64,000 nt of DNA from Alphaproteobacteria bacterium (GTDB lineage: Bacteria > Pseudomonadota > Alphaproteobacteria > UBA828), in NCBI GenBank assembly GCA_965214705.1, contig CBDCCI010000002.1:288001-352000 (forward strand), given 5' to 3'. Of this stretch, positions 6,722-30,567 are shown in pieces. How positions within the stretch are numbered: position 1 is the first letter of the stretch; the number at the start of each line of letters is the position of its first letter. A model generated the notes under the pieces. That model was not told where the DNA came from. It made no database searches and saw only the letters and a program-made list of their open reading frames with translations. The position numbers and the translations under genes are program-made.

Positions 6722-6952
6722 TTGAACGAAGCCGCTACGCGGAGTTAGCGGCGTAGAGTTCATTCATTTCCGAGGCGTCGCGGGTGCCGTTTGTTCTGTG
6801 CGTTCGCTTCCCGGTTGCGTCAGTGGCGCTCCGCCCGTCGGGTGGCGGATCCCCAGCAGCCTCCCGATCACCAGTGGTTAGTATCGACCCCTGCGACGGA
6901 CCGTCGCCGGATCGGTCCGGCGGCGCGCCGTCGCGATCCAGGGAGATCGATA

Positions 6953-7831
6953 ATGACCGGGACCGCGTGCGACACGAACACCGTCACCCCTCTTCGCCAG
7001 CGCATGGAGGAGCAGCTCCGCATCGCCAATCTGGCCGCGAGCACGTCCAAGGCCTACATCTGCGAGATCAAGAACCTGGCCAGGTACTACGACGCCTCGC
7101 CGGACGAGCTCGACGCCGAGCAGGTGCGCCAGTGGTACCTGGGGCGGATCGACAAGGGGCTCAGTCCGGGCACGACCAACGTCTCCTTCGCCGCGCTGAA
7201 CTTCCTCTACATCGACACACTCGGCTGGCCTGACCATGTCGCCGGCCTGCGCTCCCGCAAGAAGCCCGGCAAGCTGCCGCGCTACATGTCGGAGCAGGAG
7301 GTCGAGCACCTCATCCTTGCGACACCCGACCTCCGCCACCGTGCTGCCATTGTCACCGGCTATGGCGGCGGGCTCCGCATCTCCGAGACCTTGGCCATCA
7401 AGGTCGGCGACATCCTGTCGGAGAAGAAGCTGCTGCACATCCCCTCCGGCAAAGGCGGCACCGAGAGAATGGCACCGTTGCCGGACATCGTCATCCACTA
7501 CTTGCGCGTCTACTACAGGAACATCTGGCCGCGTCCGACGAGCTGGCTCTTCTACGGCGTCTCGCTCGACAGGCCCATCGCAACGGAGACCTTGCAGGCC
7601 GCCTTCAGGAGGGCGCGCGACATTGCCGAGCTCGACCGCAGCTACACCTTCCATTGCCTGCGCCATTCGGCGGCGACCCATCTCCTCGAGCGCGGCGGCG
7701 ATATCGAGGTGATCCGGGACATGCTCGGCCATCGAAGCGCGAACACGACCCGTCACTACGCCCGCGTCACCGGCAAGATGTTCGAGGGCCTCGACCACCC
7801 GATCTCAGGCTTCGCAGCGTTGCGCAACTGA
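6953..7831 (+). CDS. Tyrosine recombinase (SAM-like N-terminus) of the IS91-type element
   Basis: GLRISE, GKGG, HCLRHS, LGH, TRHY motifs; GGGAG RBS before the ATG. Confidence 0.93.
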   Translation: MTGTACDTNTVTPLRQRMEEQLRIANLAASTSKAYICEIKNLARYYDASPDELDAEQVRQWYLGRIDKGLSPGTTNVSFAALNFLYIDTLGWPDHVAGLRSRKKPGKLPRYMSEQEVEHLILATPDLRHRAAIVTGYGGGLRISETLAIKVGDILSEKKLLHIPSGKGGTERMAPLPDIVIHYLRVYYRNIWPRPTSWLFYGVSLDRPIATETLQAAFRRARDIAELDRSYTFHCLRHSAATHLLERGGDIEVIRDMLGHRSANTTRHYARVTGKMFEGLDHPISGFAALRN

Positions 7832-7837
7832 CGGCGC

Positions 7838-9079
7838 GTGGAGGCCGAACGCGCGGGCGTGGCGGAGATCTTCCGCCGCGCCGGCGCCGCTTTCCGTGAG
7901 CGCCACAAAGGGCGCATCGACGCCGCCCGGCTCAAGGTCATGGGCGCCATCGAGGCGTGCCGCACCGCCGTGCTCGGCGGCCACATGTACGCCTGCGAGG
8001 GCTGCGGGCGCGAGCATCCGCTCTTCAACTCCTACCGCAACCGCCACTGCCCCACCTGCCAGGGTCTCGCCGCCAACCTCTGGAGCGAGGAGCGCGCCGG
8101 GGACATCCTGCCGGTGCCCTACTTCCATGTGGTCTTCACCCTGCCCAAGGAGGTTGCCGCCATTGCCTTCTGCAACCGCAGGGTGGTGTTCGACATCCTC
8201 TTCCGGGCCGTCGCCGAGACCCTGCGCACCATCGCCGCCGATCCCCGCCACGGCGGCATGCGCATCGGCGGCACCGCGGTCCTCCATACCTGGGATCAGA
8301 AGCTCCGCTTCCACCCGCACCTGCACGTGGTCGTGCCCAACGCGGGCTTCGACGTAGACAGTGGCGAGTGGAAGACGGGGAGCACCACCTTCCTCGCCCC
8401 CGTCAAGGTCCTCGGCAGCCTGTTCCGCCGCCTCTTCCTCGAGGAGCTCGCCCGCGCCCACGGCCGGGGGGACCTGGAGTTCCACGGCACCGTCGCCCAC
8501 CTCGCCAATCCCGGCGAGTTCCACGCCACGCTTGCCGCCGCCCGGGCCAGGGACTGGGTGGTCTACGCCAAGCGGCCCTTCCGCGGGCCTGAGCAGGTCT
8601 TCCGGTACCTCTCGCACTACACGCACAGGATCGCCATCTCCGACAGCCGCATCGTCTCCTTCGACGGCGAGACGGTCTCCTTCCGCCACCGAAAGCCCAA
8701 GGCGCCGGGGCAGAGAAAGCCGCGCTACGGCATCGCCACCGTGAGCGCCGACGAGTTCATCCGCCGCTTCCTGAGGCACGTCCTGCCGGACGGCCTGCAC
8801 CGCATTCGCTACTTCGGCATCCTCGCCAACGGCTGCCGCGCCAGCACGCTGGAGAGAGCACGCCAGGCTCTCGGCGCCCTCGGCTGCGCCGCCCCCGAGG
8901 GAAGCGTGGACGGCGCTCGGGCCGAGCCCGACGAAGAGCCCGAGATCGGCACCGCGCCCGTGGCCTGCCCCCACTGCGGCGGCGTCATGCGCCTCGTCCG
9001 CGAAATCCGCCGCCGCCATGAGCCCCGCTCGACGCGCGGCCCGCCGGCGCTGCCGCCGACCCACAGGGGGAAACCGTGA
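7838..9079 (+). CDS. IS91-family transposase, copy 2 (Cys->Tyr in SCRNRHC motif)
   Basis: 3 aa differences from 94-1335, including FNSYRNRHC versus FNSCRNRHC. Confidence 0.93.
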   Translation: MEAERAGVAEIFRRAGAAFRERHKGRIDAARLKVMGAIEACRTAVLGGHMYACEGCGREHPLFNSYRNRHCPTCQGLAANLWSEERAGDILPVPYFHVVFTLPKEVAAIAFCNRRVVFDILFRAVAETLRTIAADPRHGGMRIGGTAVLHTWDQKLRFHPHLHVVVPNAGFDVDSGEWKTGSTTFLAPVKVLGSLFRRLFLEELARAHGRGDLEFHGTVAHLANPGEFHATLAAARARDWVVYAKRPFRGPEQVFRYLSHYTHRIAISDSRIVSFDGETVSFRHRKPKAPGQRKPRYGIATVSADEFIRRFLRHVLPDGLHRIRYFGILANGCRASTLERARQALGALGCAAPEGSVDGARAEPDEEPEIGTAPVACPHCGGVMRLVREIRRRHEPRSTRGPPALPPTHRGKP

Positions 9080-11239
9080 CCCAAGTTGGCACTTTTCCGC
9101 TGCCTGTGTTCCCTATTGGTTTGATTCAACGCGATATTTTTCTCGGTCGATTCCAACATGGCCCCACATTTTGTGAGATTCTGTCAGCTCATCAGACGGG
9201 TCCTCGTGCGGTGGATGGCGGGGTCCACGCCCGCCGCCGAGGAGATTGCGGCAACCTCGGCGGCCGGGCGCGTGTCCTGGCGGTTGACGATCAAGGTGCC
9301 GTCGGTCTGGCGCAGGCGCGTGGTGATCCGCACCCAGGTCCGCATGCTCTCGCGGATCGACGCCCAGCACTTGTGGATGCCGCGCGCGGCCAGCCGGGTA
9401 CGGATCAGATGCACGGCGTGGTAGGCCAGCACGGCGATCAGCAGGTGGGCCGCGATGCGCCGGTCGAGCTGGTGCCAGATCGGGCGAAGGCCGAGCTCGG
9501 ATTTCAGGCTCCGGAATGTCGCCTCGATATCCGTGATCCGCCAGTACGTCCGCAGGACCGTCTCGATGTCCCAGTCGACGTGGCTGGTGCGCAGCACATA
9601 GGCACCGGCGCCCTCATCGGCCTCGTCGTATCGCGGCCTGCGCTTGAAGCGCACGGCGGTGGCATTGGGGCCGGTTTTCGCCCTCTCGACCGTGATCTCG
9701 TAGTGCCTGGCGACGGCGGAGAAGCGCTGCTTGAGGCGGCCTATGCTCTCCAGCACCTTGTCGTAGCGCTTGAGGCGGCCCTTGACCGGGAGGCCGCCGT
9801 GGAGCCTTTCCAGCGCCGCCTCGAAGCGGTTCCGCCTCAGGCCGATGATCGCGTTCTCGGCCTTCTTCTTGCCCTCGCTGACGACGTAGAGCCGCGCCTC
9901 GCCGTCCTCGCTGGCAAGCCGCCAGGCCCGCACCTCGTGGCGCGCGCTGGTGATCAGCAGGGCCTCGGGTCCGCCCTCGGGCGGCGCAGGCCTGGCACCG
10001 CGGCTGACCGCGATCCAGTCGTAGCCCTGCTCGCCCAGCCACGCGATGTTTTTCTCGGTGGCGATGCCCGCGTCCATGACCACCGTGGGCTTCGGCGCCG
10101 TGCCGCCGCACACCGCCTCGAGCCGCGCCAGCGCCTCGTGCAGCGTGCCCGGCTCGCTCACGTTGCCCGGCAGGATCTCGCAACTGCGCGGGAAGCCCGC
10201 GCCGTCGAGCGCCAGCGCCAGCGTGATGAGGGGACAGTCGTCGCGCTTCTGCTTGGAGCGCCCGAACCTGGGAAGCTCGCCGCCCGTGTGGCCGTGGTAG
10301 TGGACGTTGGTGAGATCGTAGAAGGCGATCGTCTCGGGCAGGTCGAGCAGTGCGCGCTCACGGTTGAACAGCTCCCGCTGGATGGCGGCGCGGTGGCGCC
10401 AGAGCAGGTCGCCGATGCGGTAGAGCGTCTTGCGCCGCAGCGCCTTGCGGTCGCCCTCCAGGCCCAGGAGCTCGGCGGCCGCGCTGTCGTGGCGGAGCCA
10501 GCGGCTGGTATCACGCTCGCTGGCGGGATGGACCATCCTGGCGACGATCAGCGCGCTGGCGATGCGCCCGTCGCGGCCCTTGATGTCGAGGCCGTGGAGG
10601 ATTTCGGCGAAGCCGAGGGCGTCGAGGGCCTTGAGGCACAGGCGCTCGCAGCCGACCGTGCGCGGGTTCTCGTGCTCCAGGGTATCGAGGTCGACGGTGG
10701 CGATGTCGGGCTTGCGCGCCTCTTCCTGCATCGCCTCGACGCGGAACCCCCTGGCCCTGAGCTTGGCGACGATGTCCTCGGCTGCGGCCCGCACATCCGC
10801 CTCGCCCTCGAACAGCGGCGGCTTGCCGTGAAGCAGCGCCTCGGCGAGTTCGGTGACGGCCTTCCACTTCTCGCGCGGCACCGGATAGTCGGTGCCGAGA
10901 TTGAGCAGCGTCCTGTGGCGCACCTTGTCGCCGACGCGCTGGGCGAGCACGAGGCGATGGCTTCGGACCGGCTGGCCGGCCTTGTCGGTGTGTGTCCTGG
11001 TTGCCTTGATGTACATGGCGGCGCCGTTTCTGCGATGCCTGTTTCGCATACACGGCGTTCGCGGCATCTGGCAAGAGGGATATCGACTCAACTCCAAAGT
11101 CCTGGCCCCACAATTGGCTTCCAGGACCACGAATGGCAAATGTGGGTCTCAGGTGTCCTCCAACCCCAACATCTAGTGGTTCAGCGCCGCAAAACTGGCT
11201 CGAACAGGCTCGGCTGGTCGGAAAAAGTGCCAACTTGGG
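9080..11239 (-). mobile_element. IS1634-family insertion sequence
   Basis: Terminal IRs CCCAAGTTGGCACTTTT / AAAAGTGCCAACTTGGG; GTGA duplicated at 9076-9079 and 11240-11243. Confidence 0.9.
9184..11016 (-). CDS. IS1634-family DDE transposase
   Basis: FYDLTN, FGRSKQKRDD, VVMDAG, IEATFRSLKSELGLRPIWH...AHL motifs. Confidence 0.92.
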   Translation of the reverse strand: MYIKATRTHTDKAGQPVRSHRLVLAQRVGDKVRHRTLLNLGTDYPVPREKWKAVTELAEALLHGKPPLFEGEADVRAAAEDIVAKLRARGFRVEAMQEEARKPDIATVDLDTLEHENPRTVGCERLCLKALDALGFAEILHGLDIKGRDGRIASALIVARMVHPASERDTSRWLRHDSAAAELLGLEGDRKALRRKTLYRIGDLLWRHRAAIQRELFNRERALLDLPETIAFYDLTNVHYHGHTGGELPRFGRSKQKRDDCPLITLALALDGAGFPRSCEILPGNVSEPGTLHEALARLEAVCGGTAPKPTVVMDAGIATEKNIAWLGEQGYDWIAVSRGARPAPPEGGPEALLITSARHEVRAWRLASEDGEARLYVVSEGKKKAENAIIGLRRNRFEAALERLHGGLPVKGRLKRYDKVLESIGRLKQRFSAVARHYEITVERAKTGPNATAVRFKRRPRYDEADEGAGAYVLRTSHVDWDIETVLRTYWRITDIEATFRSLKSELGLRPIWHQLDRRIAAHLLIAVLAYHAVHLIRTRLAARGIHKCWASIRESMRTWVRITTRLRQTDGTLIVNRQDTRPAAEVAAISSAAGVDPAIHRTRTRLMS

Positions 11240-12654: not shown

Positions 12655-13195
12655 ATGAGACGTAACCAGCGTGTTACGATGTGCTGCTCCCTGGTCGCGT
12701 TTCGTGCCAACTTTTCCCGGCACGCGAGGGGCGCGCTCGGGTACGAACGATCGTACCCGGTCGCAGCGCATCGCACGCAAACGCAGCCACCGCGACCCCT
12801 GCATCAGCGATGCGTCGGGTGTATGACCCAGACCGCTCCAGCGGTGGGAGCGGCCAATTCGTGCGGCATGAGCGATGGGGGAATCTTCGCCGGCGAGCGC
12901 AGCGGTTCGGAGCCGCCGCGGCGATTGATGCGGGCGGTCCGGCCGTCGCGAGCGAGGGCACCGGTGCGAAGCACCGTGCCGAACGGTGCGGCAGCGCATG
13001 ACATGGACGCGAAACGCAGCGCCGACAGCGAGCGAAGCGAGACCCCGGATCGCAGTCCGGGGCAGGCTGCGCATTGAGCGCCGCGCGAAGCGCGCGCGGT
13101 GGTCGGTACAGCCGCGAGACGGTCGGTGCGAAGAGAACGAGCCGCGCCGCCGTCCCGATGCCGGGATGACGACGCGGCCCGCGATGCGTTGCGGT

Positions 13196-14116
13196 CTAGG
13201 CCGCCTTCAGGACCGGAATGCCGAGCTGCCGCGCGCGGTCCACAAGGTTCTCGGTGATGCCGGAGCCGGGGAACGCGATCACGCCCTTGGGCAGGAGGTT
13301 GAGCAGTTCCTCGTTGCGGCGGAACGGTGCGGCGCGTCCGTGGCGGTCCCAGTCCGGCTTGCAGACGATCTGGTGGACGCCGTTGCGGTCTGCCCACTGC
13401 GCCGCGATCTTCTCGACGCCGGGGCCGCCGCCGTGCACGAGCACGATGTCTGCGTATTTGGCGCGGGCCTGTTCGAGCTTCGCGATCACCGTCGCCGGGT
13501 CGTCGACGTTCTTGCCGCCCGCGATGGCTACCAGCGTGCCCTGCGGCAGGTGCGCCGTGGTCGCGCGGTCCTTCCTCGCGCGCATGTAGTCTCGGGCGTC
13601 GATAGCCGCGCTGGTCAGCCTGCCGGTCTGCGAGGTGTGCGATCCCCGGCGCGGCCGCCACACGCTGCCGGTGTCCGCGCGGTAGGCGTCGGCGGCTTCG
13701 TCGCGCATCCGCTCGAACGCGTCGCGGCGCGCGGTCAGGTTGTGCGCCCTGTCCGTCACCAGCTCCAGCTCGCGCGACTTGATCTCGGTGCCGTCCTGCC
13801 CGCGCTGGAGGTCGCGCAGTTGCGGCGTCAGCTTGTCGGCGGCGCGGTCGAGGCGGTTGGTCTGGCTGTCGAGCATGTTTACGAAGCCCCACAGCAGGCT
13901 CTCGCGCTCGTCGGCGATTTGGAACCCGTCCGGCGCGACGCCCTGGGCCATGATGCGGAACGCCTCCGCGACGGCGGTCAGCGCGTCGTCCTCGTCCCAG
14001 ACCTCGCGGGTGTCGAACTCGTCGCGCTCGGGGGCGGCGCCGAAGAGGGCGGCGTTGTCGCTGATGGTCGCTGTCATGGACTGGTCCTGCGCTTCGATGT
14101 TCTCGATGGTGGTCAT
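13196..14116 (-). CDS. DUF2493 / YspA-related SLOG family protein
   Basis: LVHGGGPGVEKIAAQWA...PDWDRHGRAAPFRRN...IAFPGSGITENL; GAGGAG RBS. Confidence 0.88.
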   Translation of the reverse strand: MTTIENIEAQDQSMTATISDNAALFGAAPERDEFDTREVWDEDDALTAVAEAFRIMAQGVAPDGFQIADERESLLWGFVNMLDSQTNRLDRAADKLTPQLRDLQRGQDGTEIKSRELELVTDRAHNLTARRDAFERMRDEAADAYRADTGSVWRPRRGSHTSQTGRLTSAAIDARDYMRARKDRATTAHLPQGTLVAIAGGKNVDDPATVIAKLEQARAKYADIVLVHGGGPGVEKIAAQWADRNGVHQIVCKPDWDRHGRAAPFRRNEELLNLLPKGVIAFPGSGITENLVDRARQLGIPVLKAA

Positions 14117-14203
14117 GACGATCTCCTCGATCTGAAGTTGCACGGATCGGAGCGTTGGCCCCGACGTGATGTCCTGTTGGGAACCGCGCGCGCAGCGGAA
14201 GCA

Positions 14204-14327
14204 CCTGGGCTTAGAAGGTCTTGGGGCGGAGTGGTGCGGAAAGTCGCCGATCTTGGTGCGGAAGATCGCTCCGCGATCTTCACGGTCGGCGACTTTCACG
14301 GTCCGCCCCTAGAGCTTCTTGCCCAGG
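14204..14327 (-). promoter_or_regulatory. Long imperfect hairpin upstream of DUF2493 (copy A)
   Basis: Stacked stems GAAGATCGC/GCGATCTTC, GAAAGTCGCCGA/TCGGCGACTTTC, GGGGCGGA/TCCGCCCC and CCTGGGC/GCCCAGG. Confidence 0.75.
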
Positions 14328-14511
14328 CCGCAGGGAGCGGAGCGACCGGAGGACCCGGAGGGTTGCTGTAGCGAGCACGTGGGTCACAATGGGAGATCAC
14401 GTCGCCCCGCCCATTCTCTCCACCCGCACCGCCCCACGGCCTCGCGGCGGGCACGGCGTCGGCAAGCGAGGCGAGGACCGTGCTGCTGGCTGCCCGTGCT
14501 TGCCATCGCGG

Positions 14512-15110: not shown

Positions 15111-15405
15111 CTAAAAGGGGATCGATCCGGCCGGATCCGCGGACGTGTCCGAACCGTTCGCGGGCTCGTCCGCGGGCTGCGCCGAGGCCGTCGCGCCGTT
15201 GCCGTTGGACCCGTTCGCCTTGTCGAGGAACTGGATCCGCGAGCCGGGGACGAGCAGGATCTCGGTCGAGAACCGATCCGAGTCCTCACCGTCCTTCCGC
15301 CACTTCCTGGTCTGCAGCTTGCCCGCGACGTAGACGAGCCGGCCCTTCTTCGCGTGCTTCGCGAGCATGTCGATCAGCCCGTCCTGGAAGGTCACGCAGC
15401 GGTGC
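15111..15405 (-). pseudogene. ssb: ssb, C-terminal half only (5' truncated)
   Basis: HRCVTFQDGLIDML...KGRLVYVAGKLQTR...IPF is nearly identical to 27094-27537; the N-terminus is missing. Confidence 0.85.
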
Positions 15406-15634
15406 CTTTCAGTAAGTTGGGGATTATCGGCTACGCCACACGTACGCATGAGTGCCTAGATGTGCGATAAATCGCTCTATGAATACAGGTTTCTCCCGCT
15501 TCCTCGCGTACAGCCCGTATCTTTCTCGCGACAGACGCGCGCTCCGATACGCGTTTGTTCCACATCGGTCGCTTGCAGGGTGCTTACGATTCACCTACCA
15601 TGCAAAACCGTCAAGAATTCGCTACCCCCGACCC

Positions 15635-16816
15635 ATGCCCAGACGCGCCGAACGCAAACTCTCCAAACGCACCGTCGACGCCCTCGCCGCCGAGCGGCGC
15701 GACGCCGTCTTCTGGGATCGCGACCTGCCCGGCTTCGGGGTCAGGGTTTATCCCTCCGGCCGCAAGGTCTACCTCGTTCAGACCAGGGGACCGAACGGCT
15801 CGAAGCGGGCAACGCTCGGCAGCCACGGAGACCTCACCCCGGAGCAGGCCCGCAAGAAGGCCGCGGTCGCCATCGACCGCATCAAGCGCGGCGAACACCC
15901 GCTCCCGGCAGAGCCGCAGCCCGAGCCCACCGTGGCCGACCTGGCCGCGCACTACATGCGTGCCCATGTGGAGGTGAACTGCCAGCCGGCGACCGTGAAG
16001 GACTACCGGCGCACCCTCGACCTGCACATCCTGCCCGCCCTCGGGGAGATGACGCTCGCCTCGGTCGAGCGCGAGCATGCCGCCGACCTCCACTACCGGC
16101 TGCGCGAGACGCCGACGCGGGCGAACGCGGCGCTGAAGATCCTGTCGCACATATTCGCCCTGGCTCCGGGCTGGGGTTTCGAGACAGGCGGCAGGAACCC
16201 CTGCCGCTTCGTGCGCGGCTATCGTGAGCGCAAACGCGATCGCTTCCTGACCCGCGACGAGTACCGCCGGCTGGGCGACGTCCTGGACGAGGCGGAGAGG
16301 GGCCGGATGTCGGTGCACACGGTGGCCGCGATCCGCGTGCTGATGCTGACCGGGTGCCGGCGCAACGAGGTCCTGGAGCTGAAGTGGGACGACGTGGACC
16401 GGACGGCGGGGGAGCTGCGGATTCGTCATGCCAAGACCGGCCCGCGCCGGGTGCCGCTGACGCCGGCCGTGGCGGAGATTCTGGACGCGCTCCCTCGCGT
16501 GGAGGGCAAGCCCTGGGTGTTTCCGGGCCGGGGCGCCGACGGCCGTCTGGTCAACATCAACGCGCAGTGGCAGGCCCTGTGCGCCCGCGCCGGGCTTGAG
16601 GACGTGCGCATCCATGACCTTCGTCATTCGTACGCCTCGCGCGCGCTGGCGCTGGGCGAGAGCCTGACCACCATCGGCGGCCTTCTCGGTCACACGAAGG
16701 TGCGGACCACCGCGCGCTATGCGCATCTTGCCCGAGACACGGAGATCGAGGCTTCGGCGAAGATTGGGGCCAGCATCGGCGCCCATGTCCTGCAGGACGG
16801 GACCGGGCCAGCCTGA
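15635..16816 (+). CDS. Tyrosine integrase with arm-binding (DUF4102-type) N-domain
   Basis: FWDRDLPGFGVRVYPSG; TGCRRNE, HDLRHS, LLGH, TARY. Confidence 0.92.
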   Translation: MPRRAERKLSKRTVDALAAERRDAVFWDRDLPGFGVRVYPSGRKVYLVQTRGPNGSKRATLGSHGDLTPEQARKKAAVAIDRIKRGEHPLPAEPQPEPTVADLAAHYMRAHVEVNCQPATVKDYRRTLDLHILPALGEMTLASVEREHAADLHYRLRETPTRANAALKILSHIFALAPGWGFETGGRNPCRFVRGYRERKRDRFLTRDEYRRLGDVLDEAERGRMSVHTVAAIRVLMLTGCRRNEVLELKWDDVDRTAGELRIRHAKTGPRRVPLTPAVAEILDALPRVEGKPWVFPGRGADGRLVNINAQWQALCARAGLEDVRIHDLRHSYASRALALGESLTTIGGLLGHTKVRTTARYAHLARDTEIEASAKIGASIGAHVLQDGTGPA

Positions 16817-16843
16817 GGCGACGTTCGGGGAAGAGGTTCGGCG

Positions 16844-18037
16844 ATGGCGAAGCTTAAGCGACAGTCGATCTCGCGGCGCACGGTCGAGGCGCTGTCGGTC
16901 GACAAGGACACCGTGTTCTGGGACCGGGAGCTGACGGGCTTCGGGGTCCGCGTCTATCCGTCGGGGTCGAAGTACTACATCGTGCAGGTGCGCGGCCCGG
17001 AGGGCTCGAAGCGTCTCACGGTGGGCCGGCACGGCGTCATCACGGCGGACCGGGCGCGGCAGCGGGCGGCGCTGATCATTGCCCGGATCAAGGCGGGGGA
17101 GGACCCGATCCCGGCACCCCTGCCGCCGCCCCCGGACGGGCCGACGGTCGGCGAGATCGCGGCGCGCTACCTTGAACAGCATGTGGCGGTGCGCTGCAGG
17201 GCGAGCACGGCGGACATGTACCGGCGCAAGATCGAGCGCTACATCCTGCCGGCCTTCGGCACGTTGCCGCTTTCGGCGGTCAGCCGCGAGGACGTAGCCG
17301 GATTGCACTACGAACTCCGCGACAGGCCGGTGCTGGCGAACCATGTTGTCGAGGTCCTGTCGCGCCTGTTCACCATGGCGGAGTACTGGGGCCTTGCGCC
17401 CGAGGGCGGCAACCCGTGCCGGTTCGTGAAGCCCCACCGGGTGCGCCGGCGCGAGCGCTTCCTGACGGAGGAGGAGTTCACCCGCCTGGGCCGGGTTCTC
17501 GCCGAGGCGGAGACGGACGGCCCGGCGATGCCGAGCACGGTGGCGGCGATCCGGCTTCTGATGCTGACCGGGTGCCGGCGCAGCGAGATCCTGGAGCTGA
17601 AGTGGGATGACGTGGACCTGGAGCGCCGCGAGCTGAGGTTGCGCCAGACCAAGACGGGACCGCGCACGGTGCCGCTGAACCCTGCTGCGGTGCAGGTGCT
17701 GTCGGGGCTGCGGCGGGCGCCGGACAATCCCTGGGTGCTGCCGGGCAGGCAGCCGGGCCGGCGTATCTCGAGCCTCAACGAGCCCTGGCTGCGGCTTCGC
17801 AAGCGCGCCGGGCTGGAGGACGTGCGGCTTCATGACCTGCGTCACAGCTTCGCTTCGCGCGCGCTGGCGCTTGGGGAATCGCTTCCGATGATCGCGCGGC
17901 TCCTGGGCCACGCCGAGGTGCAGACGACGGCGCACTACGCCCACCTGAGCCGCGAAGCCCTTAATGCGGCGGCGGCCAGGATCGCGGACAGCATCGGTGA
18001 GGACATTCTTCGCGGCGCCCGGACTTCGAGCCCCTGA
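16844..18037 (+). CDS. Second, paralogous tyrosine integrase with arm-binding N-domain
   Basis: FWDRELTGFGVRVYPSG; TGCRRSE, HDLRHS, LLGH, TAHY. Confidence 0.92.
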   Translation: MAKLKRQSISRRTVEALSVDKDTVFWDRELTGFGVRVYPSGSKYYIVQVRGPEGSKRLTVGRHGVITADRARQRAALIIARIKAGEDPIPAPLPPPPDGPTVGEIAARYLEQHVAVRCRASTADMYRRKIERYILPAFGTLPLSAVSREDVAGLHYELRDRPVLANHVVEVLSRLFTMAEYWGLAPEGGNPCRFVKPHRVRRRERFLTEEEFTRLGRVLAEAETDGPAMPSTVAAIRLLMLTGCRRSEILELKWDDVDLERRELRLRQTKTGPRTVPLNPAAVQVLSGLRRAPDNPWVLPGRQPGRRISSLNEPWLRLRKRAGLEDVRLHDLRHSFASRALALGESLPMIARLLGHAEVQTTAHYAHLSREALNAAAARIADSIGEDILRGARTSSP

Positions 18038-21362: not shown

Positions 21363-24300
21363 CTAGGACGCAAAGGAACTACGGGGCAGCAGGGGCTTCC
21401 ATTCCCGCCCGTTCGCATTTCCGGAAGACCAGAAAACGGGAAGGGTGTTGTTGGGGATTGTGTTGTGAAAGGAAACGAGAGCAGCCACGTCTCCGAAGCC
21501 CAGCGGATGTTGGGGTGTCAGTTGCTGCCCAATTTGAAACATTATCTCTTCTGCATATGCTCTTTCGCTGTCGTCGTCGAATATGCCGGCGTCAGGTGAA
21601 AACGCCTTCACCTGGTCATCGAATGTGGTCATGGTTAGGACGCTTACTTCCGGAAATTCGTGTTGCAGTCGCATAATCGCTTCCGGAAAGGCCGTTTGGA
21701 GACAGCACACGACGCGACCTTCGCCGGCGAGTTCGGAGAACAGCTGCTCATCCAGCGACCAAAGTCGTTTGAGGCCCTGCACAAGAGTGTTTCCGGTGCC
21801 TGCAAAGTCATCGACGACGACGAGTACGGGGTCGTTGTCGAGACGTGCCTGGACCCAGGTGTACATGCCTTTGACGTGACTGCATTTTCCCGGACTCATG
21901 CGTTTGGCGAGCTCTCGAGCGGTAGCGGCTCCGCTTTTCGTATCCGAGTCGACGTGACCCAAGTAAAGGTTATCTTTTCTTCGCCTGAATATACGCCACG
22001 CACCGTCGCCGATGTCTTGCCTGCGCGCATTCAGTGAATTGTCCATCTTTGCGAGGCCATTGACGCTCGCGCCATCATTAACAAATCCGTTCTCTGCAAG
22101 CCGCTTGAGCAACATAAAGGCTACCTCGACACGGCTGTCATCGTCGAACTGGCGTAACCATCGACGGACCTCTGCGACGTCTATTTGGCGTCCCAGATAA
22201 ACGAGACGCTCGGACACGGAGAGAAGCTCGTCCTCTGTGATCGGGAAAGCGGCGGACTCGATGATCGTCAATGGAGTCGTCTCATCTACCGGCTCTGTCG
22301 CGGCCAGTTCTTCCTGGAAAGATCGCCAAACCGGTATGAGTTCAACCTCACCGCTCTCGAGCAACCAGTCTCGGAATGCAGGGAGCGCGACCTCATAACC
22401 TCGTGAACCGGCCTTTTGGCGGGAGATAACGCGTCTTCGCATCAGCCCGTCCTGGATTTCGCGAAGATCCTGTGGTGACAACCGCTCGTGGGGTTCCAAA
22501 TCGAGTTGCTTTTGCGCTTCTATCAGATCATCTACCGATTCATATTCACCCGAACCGAGCCTTGCCACGATCGCGAGGAAGAGGCAGTTGCGGGCAACAG
22601 ACCCCTGCTTGTGGTTGGGATCGAGAACGGGAACGTCTTCCCAAAAATGCGCGAAGTTCGTCGGCCCAAGCTCTCGCACCAGACTACGCCGCACGTAATC
22701 GAAATCGCTGGTCCCCACGTAAGTGCGCTGCTCCTGAGCGCAGCGGCGGAATACTTTGCCAGCGACAAGATGCATGTAGAACGGATTGCCCCGACAATAG
22801 TCCACGATGCGCTTTACGGTGTCAGGATCGTACTCGATCTTGCCGGCGAGTGGTTGGATTAGAAGGGCTTCGCAATCGGCGTCTACTTCGATTCGGTCAA
22901 GAGAACTATTGATCCATTTATTTAGGTCGGCCGAATGACTATGGTAGATGCTGTTCATTCGTTCGCTGCCGACGAACATGAAGGTCAATCCAACCTCCGA
23001 GAGCGAGCGCAGAGCCTTGACGAACTGCTTACCGCGTTCTCCCAAGTAGAAGGCGGGATTGAGATCGTCAAACTCATCGATGATGACCAACATCTTGCGG
23101 CCGATTTCGCGCGCTAACCCGTCGACGTAGGGAACAAGGCGGCCGAGACCCGCTCGGAAGTCATCTTCGGCGGGTGGTTGGCGCTGGATGCCCAGCGCAC
23201 TTGTCAGGCGGGTGGCCAAAGTGTGTCCAAGCTGTCCTTCGTGCAGGGACGCCAATTCGCCCATTCGCAGCACAACGCACACGATGTCGTCACGGGCATC
23301 AAGGTTAGCGGCTAGGACCTGGAGCACCGAGGTCTTGCCGACTCGCTTCTGGCCCCACAAGAACGTGGATGTCTCGTTCGAGACGTGAAGTTCGAGCTCA
23401 GCGAGGACGGAGTCCCTACCGTAAAGATCTTTCTTTTCTCGGATCGGATTGATTGCGTAGGGAGGGTTCTTGAGTAGCTCGTCCCAGTCTGGCTGGGTGC
23501 GTTGCTGTTGGAACTCGAGATACTGCTCAAATTTCAAGGTTCGCCCGTTTGCCGTCTGGCATGCCAGCGCAGCCTGGAGGTTGAATGTTCTATCGCCTGG
23601 GGCGTTGCTCAACTTGAGCTGGATCAAGCGTTCGGTGTGGGGTGGGAGGTCGAAGGGAGTGGAAGGTTCGAAAGCGGAGAGTGTTGCGATTCCAACTGGA
23701 TCGGCCAATAGGATGCTGACCGAGTAGGCTGTTCCATCCCCGTCGTTGACCACGCGCGCCGGAAATACGATACCGTCGTTGCGGCCGCCGAGATCAAGCT
23801 TGAACGTGCCGCCCACGATTTCGAGCGCAGGCTTCATCATCTCGTCACTCGCCTGGGTTCCTTCTTCGATGAGGCGGGACATGTGCTTGGCCACTGGCTC
23901 CAGCACCATCCTCTGGAGTCTGTGGTTCACATTGTCGCCCAGTCCATCGAGCGTCCGTTGCAATTGACGAGTTAAGTCACGCGCGCGCCTGGGAATTCGT
24001 TCGGCCTCGTATCTCTCGCAGCTTTCGCAGAACTTGCGGAACAAGGTTCCCAGCAGCGTTTCAACATCCCGAAGAGTCTGCCGTTCCCCCAGGAGCGCGT
24101 AAGGCGTGTATGCATGAGCGTGCTTGATGATGTCGGTGGATGGCAACTTGGCAGCGACGACCGTCGACTGGCAGAAGCTTTGTACTGCCCTGTCCAACGC
24201 CGAACTCAGTTCCCTTGTTTTGACCGTGGCTGCGGTCATCGTTGCGGACGGGTTGGTCCTTGCGGGAAGGCGGAGCAGTGAGCGGAGCGGCGGTGCAATC

Positions 24301-25364
24301 CGATAGCTGAGATCGCCAACTCGCGCTGGAAGCTCCCGGCCTGCGTCTTCCATTCTCAATGTTGCATGAAGTGTCGCCAGGGCAAGCGATTCGACAACGA
24401 ATTTGTCGATGTGCTCCAGCAGATCCGCGATGGTGTTAATCTCGGCATCCACTGGGTTGGTCGACGCCCACCACGTGACGGTGTTTACGAATGTCTTCTC
24501 AAGATCGGCGTTGTCTACCAAATGCAGTTGCGATGCAAATGCTTCTCCCACACCGAGGCTGTCGCCATTCGTTCGGTAACGGTCAAGGATGGCCTGGAAC
24601 TCTTCGGCTTTGCCCTCCGGTTCGCCAGGGTCTCTTGCGGTGTCAGCCTGTGCTTTGTCCTGTGCCCCAACAGGAACGTCAACTAGAAGGGATACCGAAG
24701 GCGGGCGTTCTGTCCCGATCGCTAGAAGGTCCTCGACCGGACCGGCCGACTCGCCGCGGCCCCGCTTCCGCTCACGCCAGCCAAGGTCCGGCTCGCCGCG
24801 GCCCACAGGTTCGGCCAAGACGGTCGAGGCATCCACGGCCACGATGGACGAAACCATCGGACCCTGACGGCCTTCCGTCACCTCGCAGGTCACGGTCGCG
24901 CCCTGCGGCAGCGTGTCGTACCCGGCGTCCCTGACGACCGAGGCATGGCAGAACACGTCGGGCGAGCTGTCGTCGGGCACCAGAAACCCGAAGCCTTTCG
25001 CCGGATTGAACCATTTCACGGCAGCCACGACGCGGCGGCCCCGAGCCGGACCAGGCTCGCCGTGACCATGTCCGTACGCCCTGCGCGGCGACATGCCGCC
25101 CCTCGCCGGGATCGCGGTCGAGGTATCGACGGCATGAATCTGCGTGACTTGGGGACCCTGGCAGCCCTGCTCGACCTCACACGTTACAGTCGCACCCTCG
25201 GGCAGAGTTTCGAAGCCCGCCCACTTCACTACCGATGCATGGCAGAAGATGTCGCGCGAGCCTTCGGCGGGGGTCAGGAAACCAAAACCCTTCACCGGAT
25301 TGAACCATTTGACCGCCGCAACGACCGTTGCGCCGGGCGCCGACCCTGAACCGCCTTCCCGCAT
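21363..25364 (-). CDS. Fusion: two cold-shock domains + P-loop (STAND-like) ATPase + PRTase-like C-terminal domain (1333 aa)
   Basis: Two VKWFNPxKGFGF...FCHAS repeats; Walker A WGQKRVGKTS; Walker B IIDEFD; PRPP loop VVDDFAGTG and PLGF...HNTIPNNTLPVFW; no stop between parts; purine-rich stretch (AAGGAAAGG...AGGA) before ATG 25364. Confidence 0.8.
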   Translation of the reverse strand: MREGGSGSAPGATVVAAVKWFNPVKGFGFLTPAEGSRDIFCHASVVKWAGFETLPEGATVTCEVEQGCQGPQVTQIHAVDTSTAIPARGGMSPRRAYGHGHGEPGPARGRRVVAAVKWFNPAKGFGFLVPDDSSPDVFCHASVVRDAGYDTLPQGATVTCEVTEGRQGPMVSSIVAVDASTVLAEPVGRGEPDLGWRERKRGRGESAGPVEDLLAIGTERPPSVSLLVDVPVGAQDKAQADTARDPGEPEGKAEEFQAILDRYRTNGDSLGVGEAFASQLHLVDNADLEKTFVNTVTWWASTNPVDAEINTIADLLEHIDKFVVESLALATLHATLRMEDAGRELPARVGDLSYRIAPPLRSLLRLPARTNPSATMTAATVKTRELSSALDRAVQSFCQSTVVAAKLPSTDIIKHAHAYTPYALLGERQTLRDVETLLGTLFRKFCESCERYEAERIPRRARDLTRQLQRTLDGLGDNVNHRLQRMVLEPVAKHMSRLIEEGTQASDEMMKPALEIVGGTFKLDLGGRNDGIVFPARVVNDGDGTAYSVSILLADPVGIATLSAFEPSTPFDLPPHTERLIQLKLSNAPGDRTFNLQAALACQTANGRTLKFEQYLEFQQQRTQPDWDELLKNPPYAINPIREKKDLYGRDSVLAELELHVSNETSTFLWGQKRVGKTSVLQVLAANLDARDDIVCVVLRMGELASLHEGQLGHTLATRLTSALGIQRQPPAEDDFRAGLGRLVPYVDGLAREIGRKMLVIIDEFDDLNPAFYLGERGKQFVKALRSLSEVGLTFMFVGSERMNSIYHSHSADLNKWINSSLDRIEVDADCEALLIQPLAGKIEYDPDTVKRIVDYCRGNPFYMHLVAGKVFRRCAQEQRTYVGTSDFDYVRRSLVRELGPTNFAHFWEDVPVLDPNHKQGSVARNCLFLAIVARLGSGEYESVDDLIEAQKQLDLEPHERLSPQDLREIQDGLMRRRVISRQKAGSRGYEVALPAFRDWLLESGEVELIPVWRSFQEELAATEPVDETTPLTIIESAAFPITEDELLSVSERLVYLGRQIDVAEVRRWLRQFDDDSRVEVAFMLLKRLAENGFVNDGASVNGLAKMDNSLNARRQDIGDGAWRIFRRRKDNLYLGHVDSDTKSGAATARELAKRMSPGKCSHVKGMYTWVQARLDNDPVLVVVDDFAGTGNTLVQGLKRLWSLDEQLFSELAGEGRVVCCLQTAFPEAIMRLQHEFPEVSVLTMTTFDDQVKAFSPDAGIFDDDSERAYAEEIMFQIGQQLTPQHPLGFGDVAALVSFHNTIPNNTLPVFWSSGNANGREWKPLLPRSSFAS

Positions 25365-25700
25365 TCCTGACGACCTGCCTTTCCTTGATTGCCGGAGCCA
25401 GGCCGCCGCCGGGCCACCGGTCGAATGATCGCGGCGGAGCGGTCTCCGCCACCGGGCTGGCATCATAGTTACGGCCGGGGCGCGGCAACAGATCCGTGAC
25501 GCCTTGTGTGTCCGCCTCCAGCATCGCGTCATAACGAAGTCGCCCTCCGCCACCGCCGCGCGCCGCCTCCCCGTCGTCATTCTGCCGCCACACGTCTGTG
25601 CGCCACCGCGAGCGAGAGGCCGGCCGTGACGCGGGCGGCGGGGGCGGCGCTGCGGAGCGTGTCCCCGCCGTCGGCAACCACCACCGGGGGAGACGGCAAG

Positions 25701-26024
25701 ATGCGGACCGGCCGAATGTTCCATCGCGACGCGCAGACCTTTCTGGTGCACCTGTTCGGCAGAGGTCTCGACGACGAGCGCTACGTGGTCGAGAAGTACC
25801 GTTCCCATCCCAACGGCGAGATCGAGCCCATCCAGGCGGAGGAGCCCAGGACGAAGGGCCGGCGCAGGCCGCGCAGGAAGATCGTCTCGCGCAAAGCGGT
25901 CCGGGAGATGCGGCCCGAACGCGACGAGATCATCGTCTGCACAGGGGTCAAGCTGGCCCGCTCCGGAGTCCAGATCTGGGGTGTTGCCGCGGCAGGCCTC
26001 GGCCTCGTGCGCACCGCGCGCTGA
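25701..26024 (+). CDS. Hypothetical protein
   Basis: GGGGAG RBS, protein-like composition, operon-like spacing to the next ORF. Confidence 0.6.
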   Translation: MRTGRMFHRDAQTFLVHLFGRGLDDERYVVEKYRSHPNGEIEPIQAEEPRTKGRRRPRRKIVSRKAVREMRPERDEIIVCTGVKLARSGVQIWGVAAAGLGLVRTAR

Positions 26025-26039
26025 CCGGGGTGGCCGGTC

Positions 26040-26849
26040 ATGCCGCTCAGGGACCCGGTGAAGAAGAAGGCGCGGGACCTTCGCCACCGTCAGCGCCACG
26101 CCGCGCGCTCCGCCAGCGGCCGTTGCACCCGCTGCGGGCGACTTCCTCCCGAGCCCGGTCGCAAAGTGTGTACAGGCTGTGCCGAGAAGCGCCGCGCCGC
26201 CGACCGCGCCCGCCGTGCCAGAGCCCGGCAGCAGGGGATGCCGTACGGCGGCCGCGATCCGGAGCAGTGCCGACGCGCCGACCGCGCCGGCGACAGGCGC
26301 CGCCGCCGGGCGCGTCTCGAGGCGGGCCTCTGCACGTCCTGCGGCCTCCGCCGGCCGGAGGACAACCGCTCCGTCTGCGAGCCGTGCCGCGAGGCAAGGC
26401 GCGCACGCGACCGCCGGCGCTATGAGACGCGAAGGGTGGCCGGCCGCTGCGTGCGCTGCACGCAGCCCACGGTCGGCGGCCTGTCGCGCTGCGGCCGGTG
26501 CCTCGCGCTGGAAAAGGAACGCGTCTGTCCCGAGCAAGAGAGCGCCGCCGGGAAGAGACGCTATGTCGCGAGGCGAGCGCAGGGCGCGTGTGTGGATTGT
26601 GGAGTCCCCACCGGCGGCTCGGCCCGCTGTCCGCGCTGCGCATATCGATCCAACTCCCGCGCGCCCGAGCGCCACCTGGCGGCGCTCTGGCCGCCGCAGA
26701 TCACCGTGGTCGAATTGGAGACGGGCGAGGAGCTGGGCGTCTTCGAGACCGAATCCGAGGCCGCCGCCTGCATCGCCTTCGCCCGCCTGCGCCCCGACCA
26801 GGTGGAGATCCTCTCCAACGTTCCCTTGATGGCTTTGTCGCCCTCATGA
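26040..26849 (+). CDS. Arg-rich protein with four CxxC-(9-11)-CxxC repeats
   Basis: GRCTRC..VCTGC, GLCTSC..VCEPC, GRCVRC..RCGRC, GACVDC..RCPRC. Confidence 0.75.
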   Translation: MPLRDPVKKKARDLRHRQRHAARSASGRCTRCGRLPPEPGRKVCTGCAEKRRAADRARRARARQQGMPYGGRDPEQCRRADRAGDRRRRRARLEAGLCTSCGLRRPEDNRSVCEPCREARRARDRRRYETRRVAGRCVRCTQPTVGGLSRCGRCLALEKERVCPEQESAAGKRRYVARRAQGACVDCGVPTGGSARCPRCAYRSNSRAPERHLAALWPPQITVVELETGEELGVFETESEAAACIAFARLRPDQVEILSNVPLMALSPS

Positions 26850-30564: not shown

Positions 30565-30567
30565 CGG

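Follow-up and report, generated by a model that had tools for sequence, protein, structure and literature searches.

Two paralogous genes in the 64,000-nt stretch analysed here (the window; 67% G+C) are each preceded by an extensive hairpin, which raises the question of what such a structure does in front of a gene. Both genes encode proteins of 306 aa with a C-terminal YAcAr domain (DUF2493, SLOG) and are located at 13196-14116 on the minus strand (copy A; PF10686, E 1.1e-22) and at 37808-38728 on the plus strand (copy B; PF10686, E 5.8e-24). Pfam offered only PF10686 as a clue to YAcAr function, and NCBIfam, PHROGs, a PDB sequence search and the protein atlas added none. A first-pass annotation had described a hairpin in each leader, at 14204-14327 and 37396-37724, and both were confirmed at these positions. 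The stem pairs it quoted differ between the copies by compensatory changes (GAAAGTCGCCGA/TCGGCGACTTTC versus GAAGTTCGGCGA/TCGCCGAACTTC, and GAAGATCGC/GCGATCTTC versus GAAGATGGC/GCCATCTTC), while the CCGT/CGCACCA loops and a 33-nt flanking block are identical in copies A and B.

The original boundaries proved too narrow. Alignment with other copies added three further outer helices, giving an imperfect hairpin that ranges in size from 241 nt, the short form represented by copy A (14163-14403, plus strand), to 447 nt, the long form represented by copy B (37320-37766, minus strand, the predicted transferred strand). In copy A, the plus strand is the predicted transferred strand and, according to folding, also the best-folding one. 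The gene-proximal arm of the basal helix P1 (14163-14174, minus strand) pairs with 14392-14403 in copy A, and that of copy B (37755-37766, plus strand) pairs with 37320-37331; in the alignment, P1 showed pairing together with compensatory TA/AT changes. The distal rod of copy A, which is the hairpin reported initially (14204-14327, plus strand), was recovered from folds, the comparison of inner hairpins and the alignment. On the plus strand it contains two TGGTGCGGAAG/CTTCACGG modules with a 3-nt CGG bulge each, set apart by covarying stems of 12 and 9 bp and ending in a 3-nt tip. The rod of copy B (37396-37724, minus strand) includes a structured apical part of 212 nt (37451-37662) that is missing in copy A.

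Between the rod and the outer helices, a conserved purine-rich bulge of 35 nt has no partner on the opposite arm. It occupies 14328-14362 (plus strand) in copy A and 37361-37395 (minus strand) in copy B, where it corresponds to the flanking block of the first-pass annotation read on the opposite strand, and it is kept even in the distant loci L060-L072. Directly 3' of this bulge, on the 3' arm of the predicted transferred strand, copy A carries a -35-like hexamer, TTGCTG (14363-14368, plus strand), and 16 nt past it a -10-like hexamer, CACAAT (14385-14390, plus strand). The equivalent core of copy B (37333-37360, minus strand) consists of TTGCTG (37355-37360), a 16-nt spacer and AACCCT (37333-37338). 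The alignments also revealed a small conserved hairpin in the leader of copy B, at about 37767-37783. As a separate observation, CCAGGTGCTnCCnCTGCG on the gene-side arm, which pairs with the -35 helix, might be read as a sigma-54-like GG-N10-GC element.

Folding and covariation showed that a single strand of the element forms a large, stable, imperfect stem-loop. When folded as sense-strand DNA, the segment 14190-14345 reached -51 kcal/mol (z -7.07) and the segment 37380-37740 reached -111.6 kcal/mol (z -6.76); this is far beyond chance, since none of 200 and none of 100 shuffles, respectively, folded as well. In a set of 41 unique inner hairpins, taken from the genome and from related loci, covariation was rich in both stems that separate the loops while CCGTGAA and TTCCGCACC were invariant. 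An alignment of 48 unique elements was then compared with 500 shuffles and with slid controls. Cells were paired in 86.5% of cases, versus 79.5% after shuffling and 36-46% in the slid controls; 47 of 92 pairs had changed on both sides (shuffled mean 29.6), and the covariation score was 0.206 versus 0.097. None of the 500 shuffles reached any of the observed values, which come from related alignment rows and from a structure derived from the first row; because the copies are related, these figures, like the strand statistics given below, overstate independence. Pairing reached 99.6% of cells in helix 5 and 99.1% in helix 6, and both partners had changed in 6 and 4 of their pairs, respectively. 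The shuffle and alignment tests thus agree with the initial proposal of a selected structure with real covariation.

The element is exclusively linked to one gene family. In the 7.9-Mb genome, all 22 left-arm and all 23 right-arm matches (nhmmer, E<1e-3) were on the same strand as, and at most 502 nt upstream of, a YAcAr paralog identified by tblastn, and in 22 of 23 cases the right-arm match ended 35-57 nt before the YAcAr protein match. Profile searches of 63 related loci with nhmmer recovered the left arm in 50 and the right arm in 56, with a left neighbour that varied among a small ORF, Toprim and SSB. Some of the related loci carry Binatia or Thermodesulfobacteriota labels. Only one such element was seen per mobile element, a point against the promoter interpretation favoured below, and a search of 23800-29300 found no comparably long inverted repeat before the ssb or the Toprim gene. 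Rfam 15 gave no match in the window at gathering thresholds, and with E-values up to 1 only chance-level hits appeared, the best by E-value scoring 24.6 bits against a gathering threshold of 168; the element therefore did not coincide with a described Rfam family. A distant-mode blastn search against 72,556 plasmid records, including F, returned no match to the element. In each of five cultured alphaproteobacterial plasmids sampled, plasmids of Phaeobacter and Sphingobium among them, the region of 246-719 nt upstream of the DUF2493 gene also folded better on the antisense strand, and in two of these five the 3' arm carried CTTGAC close to the base of the hairpin.

Distant relatives changed our view of which part matters. 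The outer helices and the flanking block are kept in them, whereas the rod is replaced by a 6-bp stub or by an unrelated palindrome, which argues against the earlier idea that the device centres on the rod with its repeated loops; this long distal part probably serves to nucleate folding and to keep the hairpin stable. The freedom at the tip, which accepts nested insertions of 150-254 nt and in distant loci an unrelated 100-nt palindrome, could point to a selfish insertion of the MITE or REP type. Such an insertion would be one form of a broader explanation, namely that the element works as double-stranded DNA, either in this way, as a palindromic operator or cruciform to which a regulator binds, or as an ordinary weak promoter facing away from the gene. 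A near-perfect 8-bp palindrome in the left arm, CACGCGTG, fits this explanation, and in a duplex the TTG and NANNNT boxes described below would point upstream. Dispersal of the MITE or REP type was not seen, however: the copies lie in a single genomic context, every arm match being upstream of a YAcAr paralog, and the apical part of copy B occurs only inside elements and nowhere else in the genome. The conserved mismatches and bulges would be pointless in a duplex, and a divergent promoter would read antisense into the genes of an operon that runs in the same direction. A duplex site also predicts no strand bias, which is contrary to what was observed in all 56 unique elements, and we consider a double-stranded mode of action highly improbable.

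This strand bias was consistent across copies. The strand antisense to the gene was the more stable one in 56 of 56 unique elements (mean -130.7 versus -115.3 kcal/mol). For the whole of copy A, the plus strand folded at -82.7 kcal/mol (z -9.58) and the minus strand at -66 kcal/mol (z -7.01), and for copy B the values were -162.2 kcal/mol for the antisense and -138.4 kcal/mol for the sense strand. G-T pairs numbered 443 on the antisense and 154 on the sense strand over the 56 elements. With a dinucleotide-shuffle control, the excess stability was larger for the antisense strand in 13 of 14 cases (z -8.4 versus -5.8). Scoring against a fixed structure gave 346 G-T cells for the antisense strand and 136 for the sense strand. 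Restricted to the outer helices, the count of wobble pairs tipped towards the sense strand (115 versus 51 cells), with two fixed positions accounting for nearly all of it.

The first-pass annotation had left open whether single-stranded DNA or RNA is the medium. The better folding of the antisense strand supports the former, while the part of the claim that invoked a cis-regulatory RNA on the mRNA strand was not supported, in view of the strand asymmetry and the lack of any Rfam family match at threshold. An RNA could act either as a 5' leader or inter-gene stabiliser, with a CU-rich block masking the ribosome-binding site, or as a structured antisense RNA. Read-through transcripts would include the element, as the genes on both sides have the same orientation, the sense strand also folds well (z -7.0), and the UCCUCC in the conserved block could pair with GGAGG near the start codon. 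Yet the sense strand was the weaker folder in every one of the unique elements and has fewer G-U-type pairs, neither strand carries a terminator-like site, and an antisense RNA would need a promoter within the gene, where none was seen. The invariant TTG and A...T have no obvious reading in RNA either, and we give very little credence to an RNA function.

The surroundings supported the proposal that a conjugative element carries this hairpin in its leading region. Upstream, on the same strand as the YAcAr gene, lie ssb and a DUF7146-Toprim gene, and genes for a TrwC relaxase, a TrwB-type coupling protein, DotA/TraY, DotH and DotI are found nearby; the host is a family of integrative conjugative elements that combines a TrwC-type relaxase with Dot/Icm-like (type IVB) transfer. 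A motif composed of a 5-bp covarying hairpin, GT[C/T][A/G]GGTGT and a purine occurs at six places in the genome, on the antisense strand and downstream of the gene. Among 57 related loci it was found in 23, never on the other strand, and the strict pattern used found none in the remaining 34. The hairpin arms covary (GCACC/GGTGC, GCAGC/GCTGC and GCATC/GATGC). In copy A, the candidate nick region (12801-12822, plus strand) comprises the 5-bp hairpin, GTCGGGTGT and a purine, with the nick predicted after 12822. In copy B, it comprises the hairpin GCAGC-CT-GCTGC, GTCAGGTGT and a G (39451-39472, minus strand), with a nick predicted between 39452 and 39451, some 720 nt past the stop codon of the YAcAr gene.

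A hairpin with 5-bp arms followed by about 9 nt and a purine, with a TrwC-family relaxase encoded nearby, resembles a MOBF-type nick region, and the putative nick site was assigned by this likeness. The nick region of R388 has the same geometry of hairpin, 9 nt, nick and purine (PMC4176350), and some copies share the arm sequences GCACC/GGTGC with it; in the nick region of F, 7-8 of the 9 nt before the nick match (PMC3074121). Since the nick motif sits on the strand antisense to the gene, the predicted transferred strand is the template of the gene. By analogy with the nic sites of F and R388, the DNA toward the YAcAr gene would enter the recipient first. Plasmid F has the same layout, its nic strand being antisense to the leading genes ssb and psiB, but it differs in the arrangement of the relaxase gene, which in the window is convergent with the leading genes. 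The rod modules, which read GGTGCG on the predicted transferred strand, were also considered as additional relaxase sites and rejected, as by eye they did not co-vary with the nick arm of copy B (GCTGC in the nick arm, GGTGC in the rod).

A strand that would bring in the template of the gene and then fold back raises the possibility of a promoter in the fold. The first-pass annotation had seen no canonical sigma-70 boxes in the stems, and this remained correct for the rod; a weak but sharply conserved -35/-10-like pattern sits in the outer helices instead (14363-14390, plus strand; 37333-37360, minus strand). TTG was present in all 56 unique sequences and in 48 of 48 aligned ones, and it was followed by a 16-nt spacer with a TGn position (T in 53 of 56, G in 56 of 56). 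In the -10-like hexamer NANNNT, A(-11) and T(-7) were invariant while 22 different hexamers occurred. Both invariant bases were mostly unpaired, framing a covarying helix of 3 bp formed by the three bases between them. A(-11) was faced by G in 24 sequences, C in 10, A in 9 and T in 5, that is, by a base other than T in 43 of 48; T(-7) was faced by T in 28, C in 11 and G in 9, and never by A. Sigma-70 flips out the bases A-11 and T-7. The middle T of the TTG faces C in 62 of 62 cases, so the gene-side arm has no TTG. The pattern is located on the arm from which a transcript would run out of the hairpin and directly into the gene. If a promoter sat on the opposite arm and faced the loop, it would be able to reach the gene as well, and the geometry assumed here is a permitted one, not one proven typical.

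Agreement with consensus boxes was low: copy A matched TTGACA/TATAAT at 7 of 12 positions and copy B at 5 of 12, the consensus being that of E. coli. A consensus sigma-70 scan found no site at copy A or copy B; it found none in the Frpo2 region of F either, and such a scan therefore has little power here. When the scan was relaxed, F gave one candidate matching 7 of 12 positions on each strand, near the loop. Two features count against the promoter model: the sequence of the spacer helix is kept more strictly than a spacer between promoter boxes would require, and the helix includes, at about -20 and -23, unpaired A's that never vary and for which the model offers no explanation.

Considering these results together, we favour, with some confidence but well short of certainty, the interpretation that the element serves as an Frpo/ssi-type promoter on single-stranded DNA. 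A nick in the antisense strand, made at the motif described above 0.4-2.1 kb downstream of the YAcAr gene, would let this strand enter the recipient with its 5' end first, so that the template of the gene arrives before the palindromic leader of 241-447 nt. The leader would then fold back, its 3' arm supplying the non-template strand of a sigma-70-type promoter, with TTG in a helix, a partly paired 16-nt spacer ending in TGn and a NANNNT hexamer whose A(-11) and T(-7) are unpaired beforehand, and its 5' arm supplying a template that continues directly into the gene. Transcription by RNA polymerase would begin within the basal helix, some 50 nt ahead of the ATG, and would cover the YAcAr gene plus anything between it and the nick while complementary-strand synthesis is still to come. 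Judging from the position of the hexamers, transcripts are predicted to start near 14169 (+/- 2) in copy A and near 37760 (+/- 2) in copy B, with leaders of about 53 and 48 nt. Once the DNA is double-stranded, the gene-side arm would read GGTGCT instead of TTGCT and would lack a -10 hexamer ending in T, so that the promoter would be lost. The same RNA could also prime synthesis of the complementary strand, as has been proposed for Frpo.

Priming leads to the most serious alternative function, in which the element would be only a single-strand initiation or origin signal (ssi/sso), used by the Toprim primase or by host priming proteins and with no role in YAcAr expression. The strand bias and the position on the incoming strand fit this explanation equally well, and a DUF7146-Toprim gene usually lies just upstream. 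The spacer helix with its strong conservation, the 35-nt bulge and the unpaired A's look like sites for protein recognition, which a promoter could do without. In the accessible portions of the literature, sequences of the Frpo type are also likened to sso as signals for priming (PMC7690428), and an sso exists in ICEBs1 (PMC4595007). A pure priming signal would not, however, account for the fixed distance to the YAcAr start, nor for the seven loci in which the element stays with the YAcAr gene although no Toprim match lies within 3 kb. The combination of TTG, 16 nt and a NANNNT whose inner bases vary would be expected of a promoter and not of a primase site. We therefore regard priming as the sole function as quite unlikely; priming and promoter functions are not mutually exclusive.

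To our knowledge, single-stranded-DNA promoters have been shown by experiment only in IncF and IncI plasmids of enterobacteria. Frpo1 and Frpo2 of F and ssi1-3 of ColIb-P9/pESBL form class 1 of these promoters (Masai and Arai, 1997, via PMC9849209, PMC12672017 and PMC11541004). As far as the available parts of these sources describe them, the class 1 elements resemble ours in several ways: an imperfect stem-loop hundreds of nucleotides long forms on the strand that is transferred (in our case the predicted one), it lies in the leading region immediately before an early gene whose template that strand provides, and ssb is nearby. Their stem carries promoter boxes, to which the weak -35/-10-like pattern of our element would correspond. 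They differ in having no sequence similarity to the present element, which is GC-rich and has boxes far from the E. coli consensus. They occur in several copies, in contrast to one per element here, and the host in our case is an integrative element of uncultured Alphaproteobacteria; the 35-nt bulge upstream of the -35 and the repeated bulged modules of the rod are further differences. Since the anatomy fits the known Frpo/ssi logic, the earlier description of an undescribed switch was overstated, although the family is a non-homologous one (PMC9849209, PMC12672017, in the parts available).

Non-homologous hairpin families that do the same job have precedents in the class 2 and class 3 promoters of pESBL and F, which were found by folding energy according to the accessible text of PMC12672017. 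The screen given there, below -75 kcal/mol per 300 nt, is passed by copy A with -82.7 kcal/mol over 241 nt. For these promoters, which control klcA, ardA and a methylase gene of enterobacterial plasmids, transcription starts have been mapped in transconjugants (same source), whereas here the cargo is a DUF2493/YAcAr gene and promoter activity is predicted from sequence. The sso of ICEBs1 (PMC4595007) and the ssi of RSF1010 and others (PMC7690428) likewise use a folded strand to start synthesis on that strand, but, in the portions of these papers available, they are defined by the priming of DNA synthesis and need not precede a gene, in contrast to an element locked to one gene family. Among the listed literature on Frpo and ICEs or on single-stranded-DNA promoters, the available parts describe no such element in Alphaproteobacteria, and the supplements of PMC11541004 and PMC12672017 might list candidates. 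The leading-region survey relied on similarity to five known sequences and on E. coli consensus boxes, according to the part of PMC11541004 that was available. The early genes of pESBL were barely induced in Sinorhizobium, and host-specific promoters were suggested (PMC12672017, in its accessible part). Our searches found no literature linking DUF2493 to conjugation.

A more elaborate version of the promoter interpretation would give the unexplained features a role. In it, the promoter would be gated, with A-11 and T-7 held unpaired in advance, and the conserved extras would form a protein docking platform that couples arrival of the strand to both transcription and priming, the YAcAr protein being the first establishment or anti-defence factor. 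Docking sites could be provided by the 35-nt bulge at the position of an UP element, by the unpaired A's (-20 and -23) and by the pair of CGG-bulge modules in the rod; the partner could be a host protein or one encoded by the element, for example the relaxase that comes in with the 5' end, the Toprim primase or SSB. We regard this version as unlikely; if it were true, YAcAr/DUF2493 would serve in this way a very large group of alphaproteobacterial plasmids and integrative elements.

If the favoured single-stranded-DNA promoter interpretation is correct, a GC-rich, non-homologous family would extend the principle of such promoters to the integrative elements of uncultured Alphaproteobacteria. 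It would also provide testable design rules, namely unpaired bases at -11 and -7 and a -35 box in a helix with one fixed mismatch. The DUF2493/YAcAr protein would then be the probable first product in a new host and a candidate for an establishment or anti-defence function; it is a good candidate because, besides this probable place as first product, its homologues are present on 738 plasmid records, 472 of them typed as conjugative.

The pairing of hairpin leaders at the two YAcAr genes (copy A, 13196-14116 on the minus strand; copy B, 37808-38728 on the plus strand), described in the first-pass annotation, was confirmed and could be enlarged. Both genes encode 306-aa paralogs with a C-terminal YAcAr (DUF2493, SLOG) domain. 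Their leaders share a fold while their stems differ, and the claimed compensatory changes were present in both places; the CCGT and CGCACCA internal loops were the same in the two copies, and the conserved flanking block comprised 33 identical nt. Folds of 14190-14345 (copy A) and 37380-37740 (copy B) gave z values of -7.07 and -6.76 relative to shuffled sequence. The boundaries originally given for this rod (14204-14327 and 37396-37724) were too narrow, since aligning copies A and B, and subsequently 20 copies of this genome, showed pairing that extends outwards beyond it. A 12-bp basal helix, P1, is formed by GTCGTGATGTCC (~120 nt upstream of the rod) and GGACATCACGAC (~45 nt before the ATG), and it is separated from the rod by two more helices (P2 and P3) and an unpaired block of 35 nt. 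From end to end, the element measures 241 nt in the short form (14163-14403) and 447 nt in the long form (37320-37766), the latter including a 212-nt structured apical part that the genome has only inside such elements. In distant relatives (labeled Binatia, Thermodesulfobacteriota, and Deltaproteobacteria; proteins 55-69% identical), P1-P3 and the unpaired block were kept, and the rod was replaced by a 6-bp stub or an unrelated ~100-nt palindrome. It is therefore the outer part, rather than the repeated loops, that forms the conserved core.

Profile searches of the genome (7.9 Mb, three contigs) detected 22 left arms and 23 right arms (E<1e-3), all on the same strand as a tblastn match of the YAcAr protein and at most 502 nt upstream of it; there is no MITE-like dispersal. 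The 64 related loci in other assemblies yielded 63 upstream regions, and the left arm was found in 50 and the right arm in 56 of these. The left-hand neighbor of the element is variable (a 76-aa ORF, the Toprim gene, or ssb), and seven related loci possess the element with no Toprim match within 3 kb. The element travels with the YAcAr gene. The Rfam search proposed earlier was run, and no family was matched by the element. Close relatives of the gene and outer core occur at loci L012, L060-L062, L068, L071, and L072, in assemblies labeled Dehalococcoidia, Binatia, Thermodesulfobacteriota, and Deltaproteobacteria; these labels reflect either cross-phylum spread or binning errors in metagenome bins.

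When 48 unique elements were aligned in the orientation antisense to the YAcAr gene, 86.5% of cells paired (79.5% in shuffles), 47 of 92 pairs were changed on both sides (shuffled mean 29.6), and the covariation score was 0.206 (0.097 in shuffles), figures that overstate independence because the rows are related and the structure was taken from the first row. None of 500 shuffles attained any of these observed values. The view of a selected, covarying structure is supported. Pairing in slid controls was 36-46%; each of the two rod stems was 99% paired, and 6 pairs in one and 4 in the other differed on both sides.

The antisense strand was the more stable in all 56 unique elements (mean -130.7 versus -115.3 kcal/mol) and formed 443 G-T pairs compared with 154 on the sense strand, a strand difference to which base composition contributes, the antisense strand being G-rich. 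Measured against dinucleotide shuffles, 13 of 14 diverse copies still had the greater excess stability on the antisense strand (-28.5 versus -22.5 kcal/mol; z -8.4 versus -5.8), with z values of -9.58 and -7.01 for the antisense and sense strands of copy A. In the fixed structure, 346 G-T cells on the antisense strand compare with 136 would-be G-T cells on the sense strand, and the 4 x 7 internal loops are reduced, on the antisense strand, to a CGG bulge of 3 nt next to a G-G mismatch. As counter-evidence, the outer helices hold two fixed sense-type wobble positions (115 versus 51 cells). On balance, the mRNA strand is the less likely candidate; of the initial proposal of an ssDNA or RNA structure, the ssDNA part is supported for the antisense strand, and a cis-regulatory RNA on the mRNA strand, the weaker folder in each unique element, is not supported.

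Read from loop to base, the 3' arm of the antisense strand carries GGG-TTG-nnn, 16 nt ending in GTGn, and then the hexamer NANNNT. Across 56 unique sequences, the TTG and the A and T of the hexamer were invariant, the remaining -35 positions varied (TTGCTG 44, TTGGCG 6, five others), and 22 different -10 hexamers were present; the 48-row alignment agrees. The base facing A(-11) was G in 24, C in 10, A in 9, and T in 5 cases, and that facing T(-7) was T in 28, C in 11, and G in 9 but never A, while the three bases in between form covarying pairs with the opposite arm (TTG/CAA, TCG/CGA, TTC/GAA, TGA/TCA). Sigma-70 flips two non-template bases, A(-11) and T(-7), into pockets, and in the modeled fold precisely these would be held unpaired beforehand. 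The middle T of TTG stands opposite C in 62 of 62 cases, and the gene-side arm therefore reads GGTGCT; at the hexamer position, this arm is A-rich and has no terminal T. Judged from sequence, a promoter of this kind directed at the gene would be absent from the duplex form. Once the single strand is folded, its 5' arm would serve as template and run on into the YAcAr gene, and we infer a start in P1, near 14169 (copy A) or 37760 (copy B), with a leader of ~50 nt. A small hairpin, GGGGC-N5-GYCCC, lies just past the basal helix (37767-37783) and at the same place in other copies; it has a sense-type G-U wobble, varies in sequence among copies, coincides with the predicted transcript 5' end, and may be a 5' stabilizer of the mRNA.

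Several observations speak against a promoter. Copies A and B match only 7 and 5 of 12 consensus positions, the consensus being that of E. coli, and a consensus promoter scan found nothing at either copy, as it also found nothing at Frpo2 of F, one of the single-stranded-DNA promoters of plasmid leading regions. In addition, conservation of the spacer helix exceeds what a spacer calls for, and there are invariant unpaired A's near -20 and -23. The main rival, an ssi/sso priming signal alone, appears improbable to us. A single-strand promoter is the most likely function, and we favor it with some confidence; it possibly doubles as a priming signal.

A conserved block common to the copies lies ~400 nt upstream of a small ribbon-helix-helix gene (39879-40175, weakly NikA-like). 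On the antisense strand, the block reads as a covarying 5-bp hairpin, then GT[C/T][A/G]GGTGT (GTNNGGTGT), then a purine, and its likeness to R388 and F marks candidate MOBF-type origin-of-transfer nick regions at 39451-39472 (minus strand) and 12801-12822 (plus strand). The R388 nick oligonucleotide described in PMC4176350 runs from a hairpin (5-bp arms) through nine nucleotides to the nick and then a purine, a layout that the candidate shares; the F oligonucleotide described in PMC3074121 consists of a hairpin, GTGGGGTGT, the nick, and G, and the candidate agrees with it in 7-8 of 9 positions at the same spacing. An inverted repeat, CGGCTC-N7-GAGCCG, adjoins the candidate nick regions. Two other sites in the genome carry the motif in its copy B spelling, and two further short-form copies have it as well. 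Among 57 related loci with enough downstream sequence, 23 have it, always on the antisense strand and 0.56-2.1 kb past the gene, and none has it on the other strand. The nic sequence of F is likewise on the strand antisense to ssb and psiB, both of which point towards oriT. Because the relaxase stays attached at the 5' end and transfer runs 5' to 3', the DNA 3' of the nick enters first; the template of the YAcAr gene would thus precede the hairpin.

Other proteins encoded in the window are a TrwC relaxase, a TrwB-type coupling protein, DotA/TraY, DotH/IcmK, DotI/IcmL, and TcpQ. Upstream of the element come ssb and a DUF7146-Toprim gene, both on its strand. In a second arrangement (L038, L042, L043, L048-L050, L053, L054, and L056), a distant TrwC-like gene (30-40% identity) lies 1.2-2 kb downstream of the YAcAr gene on the same strand; in F, the tra genes follow the leading region in this way, whereas the relaxase gene of the window is convergent. 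A MazE-MazF (PemK) pair (40875-41416) lies between the YAcAr and relaxase genes. The minus-strand ORF 21363-26675, translated over 21363-24500, carries AAA ATPase and PRTase-CE domains, suggestive of a protein of the conflict-system type. Insertion elements are very abundant (94-1335, 6791-9079, 9184-11139, and 29344-31422). For a unit that combines a tyrosine recombinase with an IS91-type (Y2) transposase, the rest of the genome holds ~98 near-identical matches; for a DDE transposase element, the figure is ~64. At 15111-18037, ssb is reduced to its C-terminal half (15111-15449, minus strand) and abuts two tyrosine recombinase genes (15452-16816 and 16844-18037), which looks like integration into the ssb of copy A's element. 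At copy B, 8.5 kb of insertions (28802-37319), including an IS91-type unit, tyrosine recombinases (31735-32736 and 35369-36964), and an IS110 transposase (33767-35206), separate the Toprim gene from the hairpin, which are ~0.9 kb apart in intact copies. Over its three contigs, the genome has ~27 copies of the ssb-Toprim-small ORF-hairpin-YAcAr block, many of them insertion-broken, and ~24 TrwC matches; it is an unusual pile-up of conjugative-element remnants.

Full-length homologs of the YAcAr protein occur on 738 plasmid records (472 typed conjugative), chiefly from Rhizobium, Sinorhizobium, roseobacters, and sphingomonads. Five cultured plasmids were sampled (L077-L081, from Sulfitobacter, Mesorhizobium, Sinorhizobium, Phaeobacter, and Sphingobium). 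The DUF2493 gene follows a Toprim gene in two of them; in the Sphingobium plasmid, ssb is found upstream, separated by a single gene on the opposite strand. The regions upstream of the DUF2493 gene (246-719 nt) contain large hairpins, the antisense strand folds better in all five, and in two of them a CTTGAC sits on the 3' arm close to the hairpin base. The Mesorhizobium region contains GGAGCGTGAGCGGAGGAC, which resembles the conserved bulge of the window's element.

Frpo1/2 of F and ssi1-3 of ColIb-P9/pESBL are described as large transferred-strand stem-loops that drive early genes from reconstituted -35 and -10 boxes (PMC9849209, PMC11541004, PMC7690428). Two further non-homologous ssDNA promoter classes with mapped starts came from a folding screen (< -75 kcal/mol per 300 nt; PMC12672017), which copy A passes at -82.7 kcal/mol. 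The hairpin family of the window has the logic of Frpo/ssi in common but not the sequence, and blastn of the element against a plasmid collection containing F gave no match. It further differs in base composition, host, cargo gene, and extra conserved unpaired features, and promoter-like boxes on the 3' arm are an allowed, though not necessarily the usual, geometry. The family is a new, non-homologous version of a known type of device; the repeated bulged modules, the 35-nt bulge, and the conserved spacer helix go beyond the promoter model and leave room for a bolder reading.
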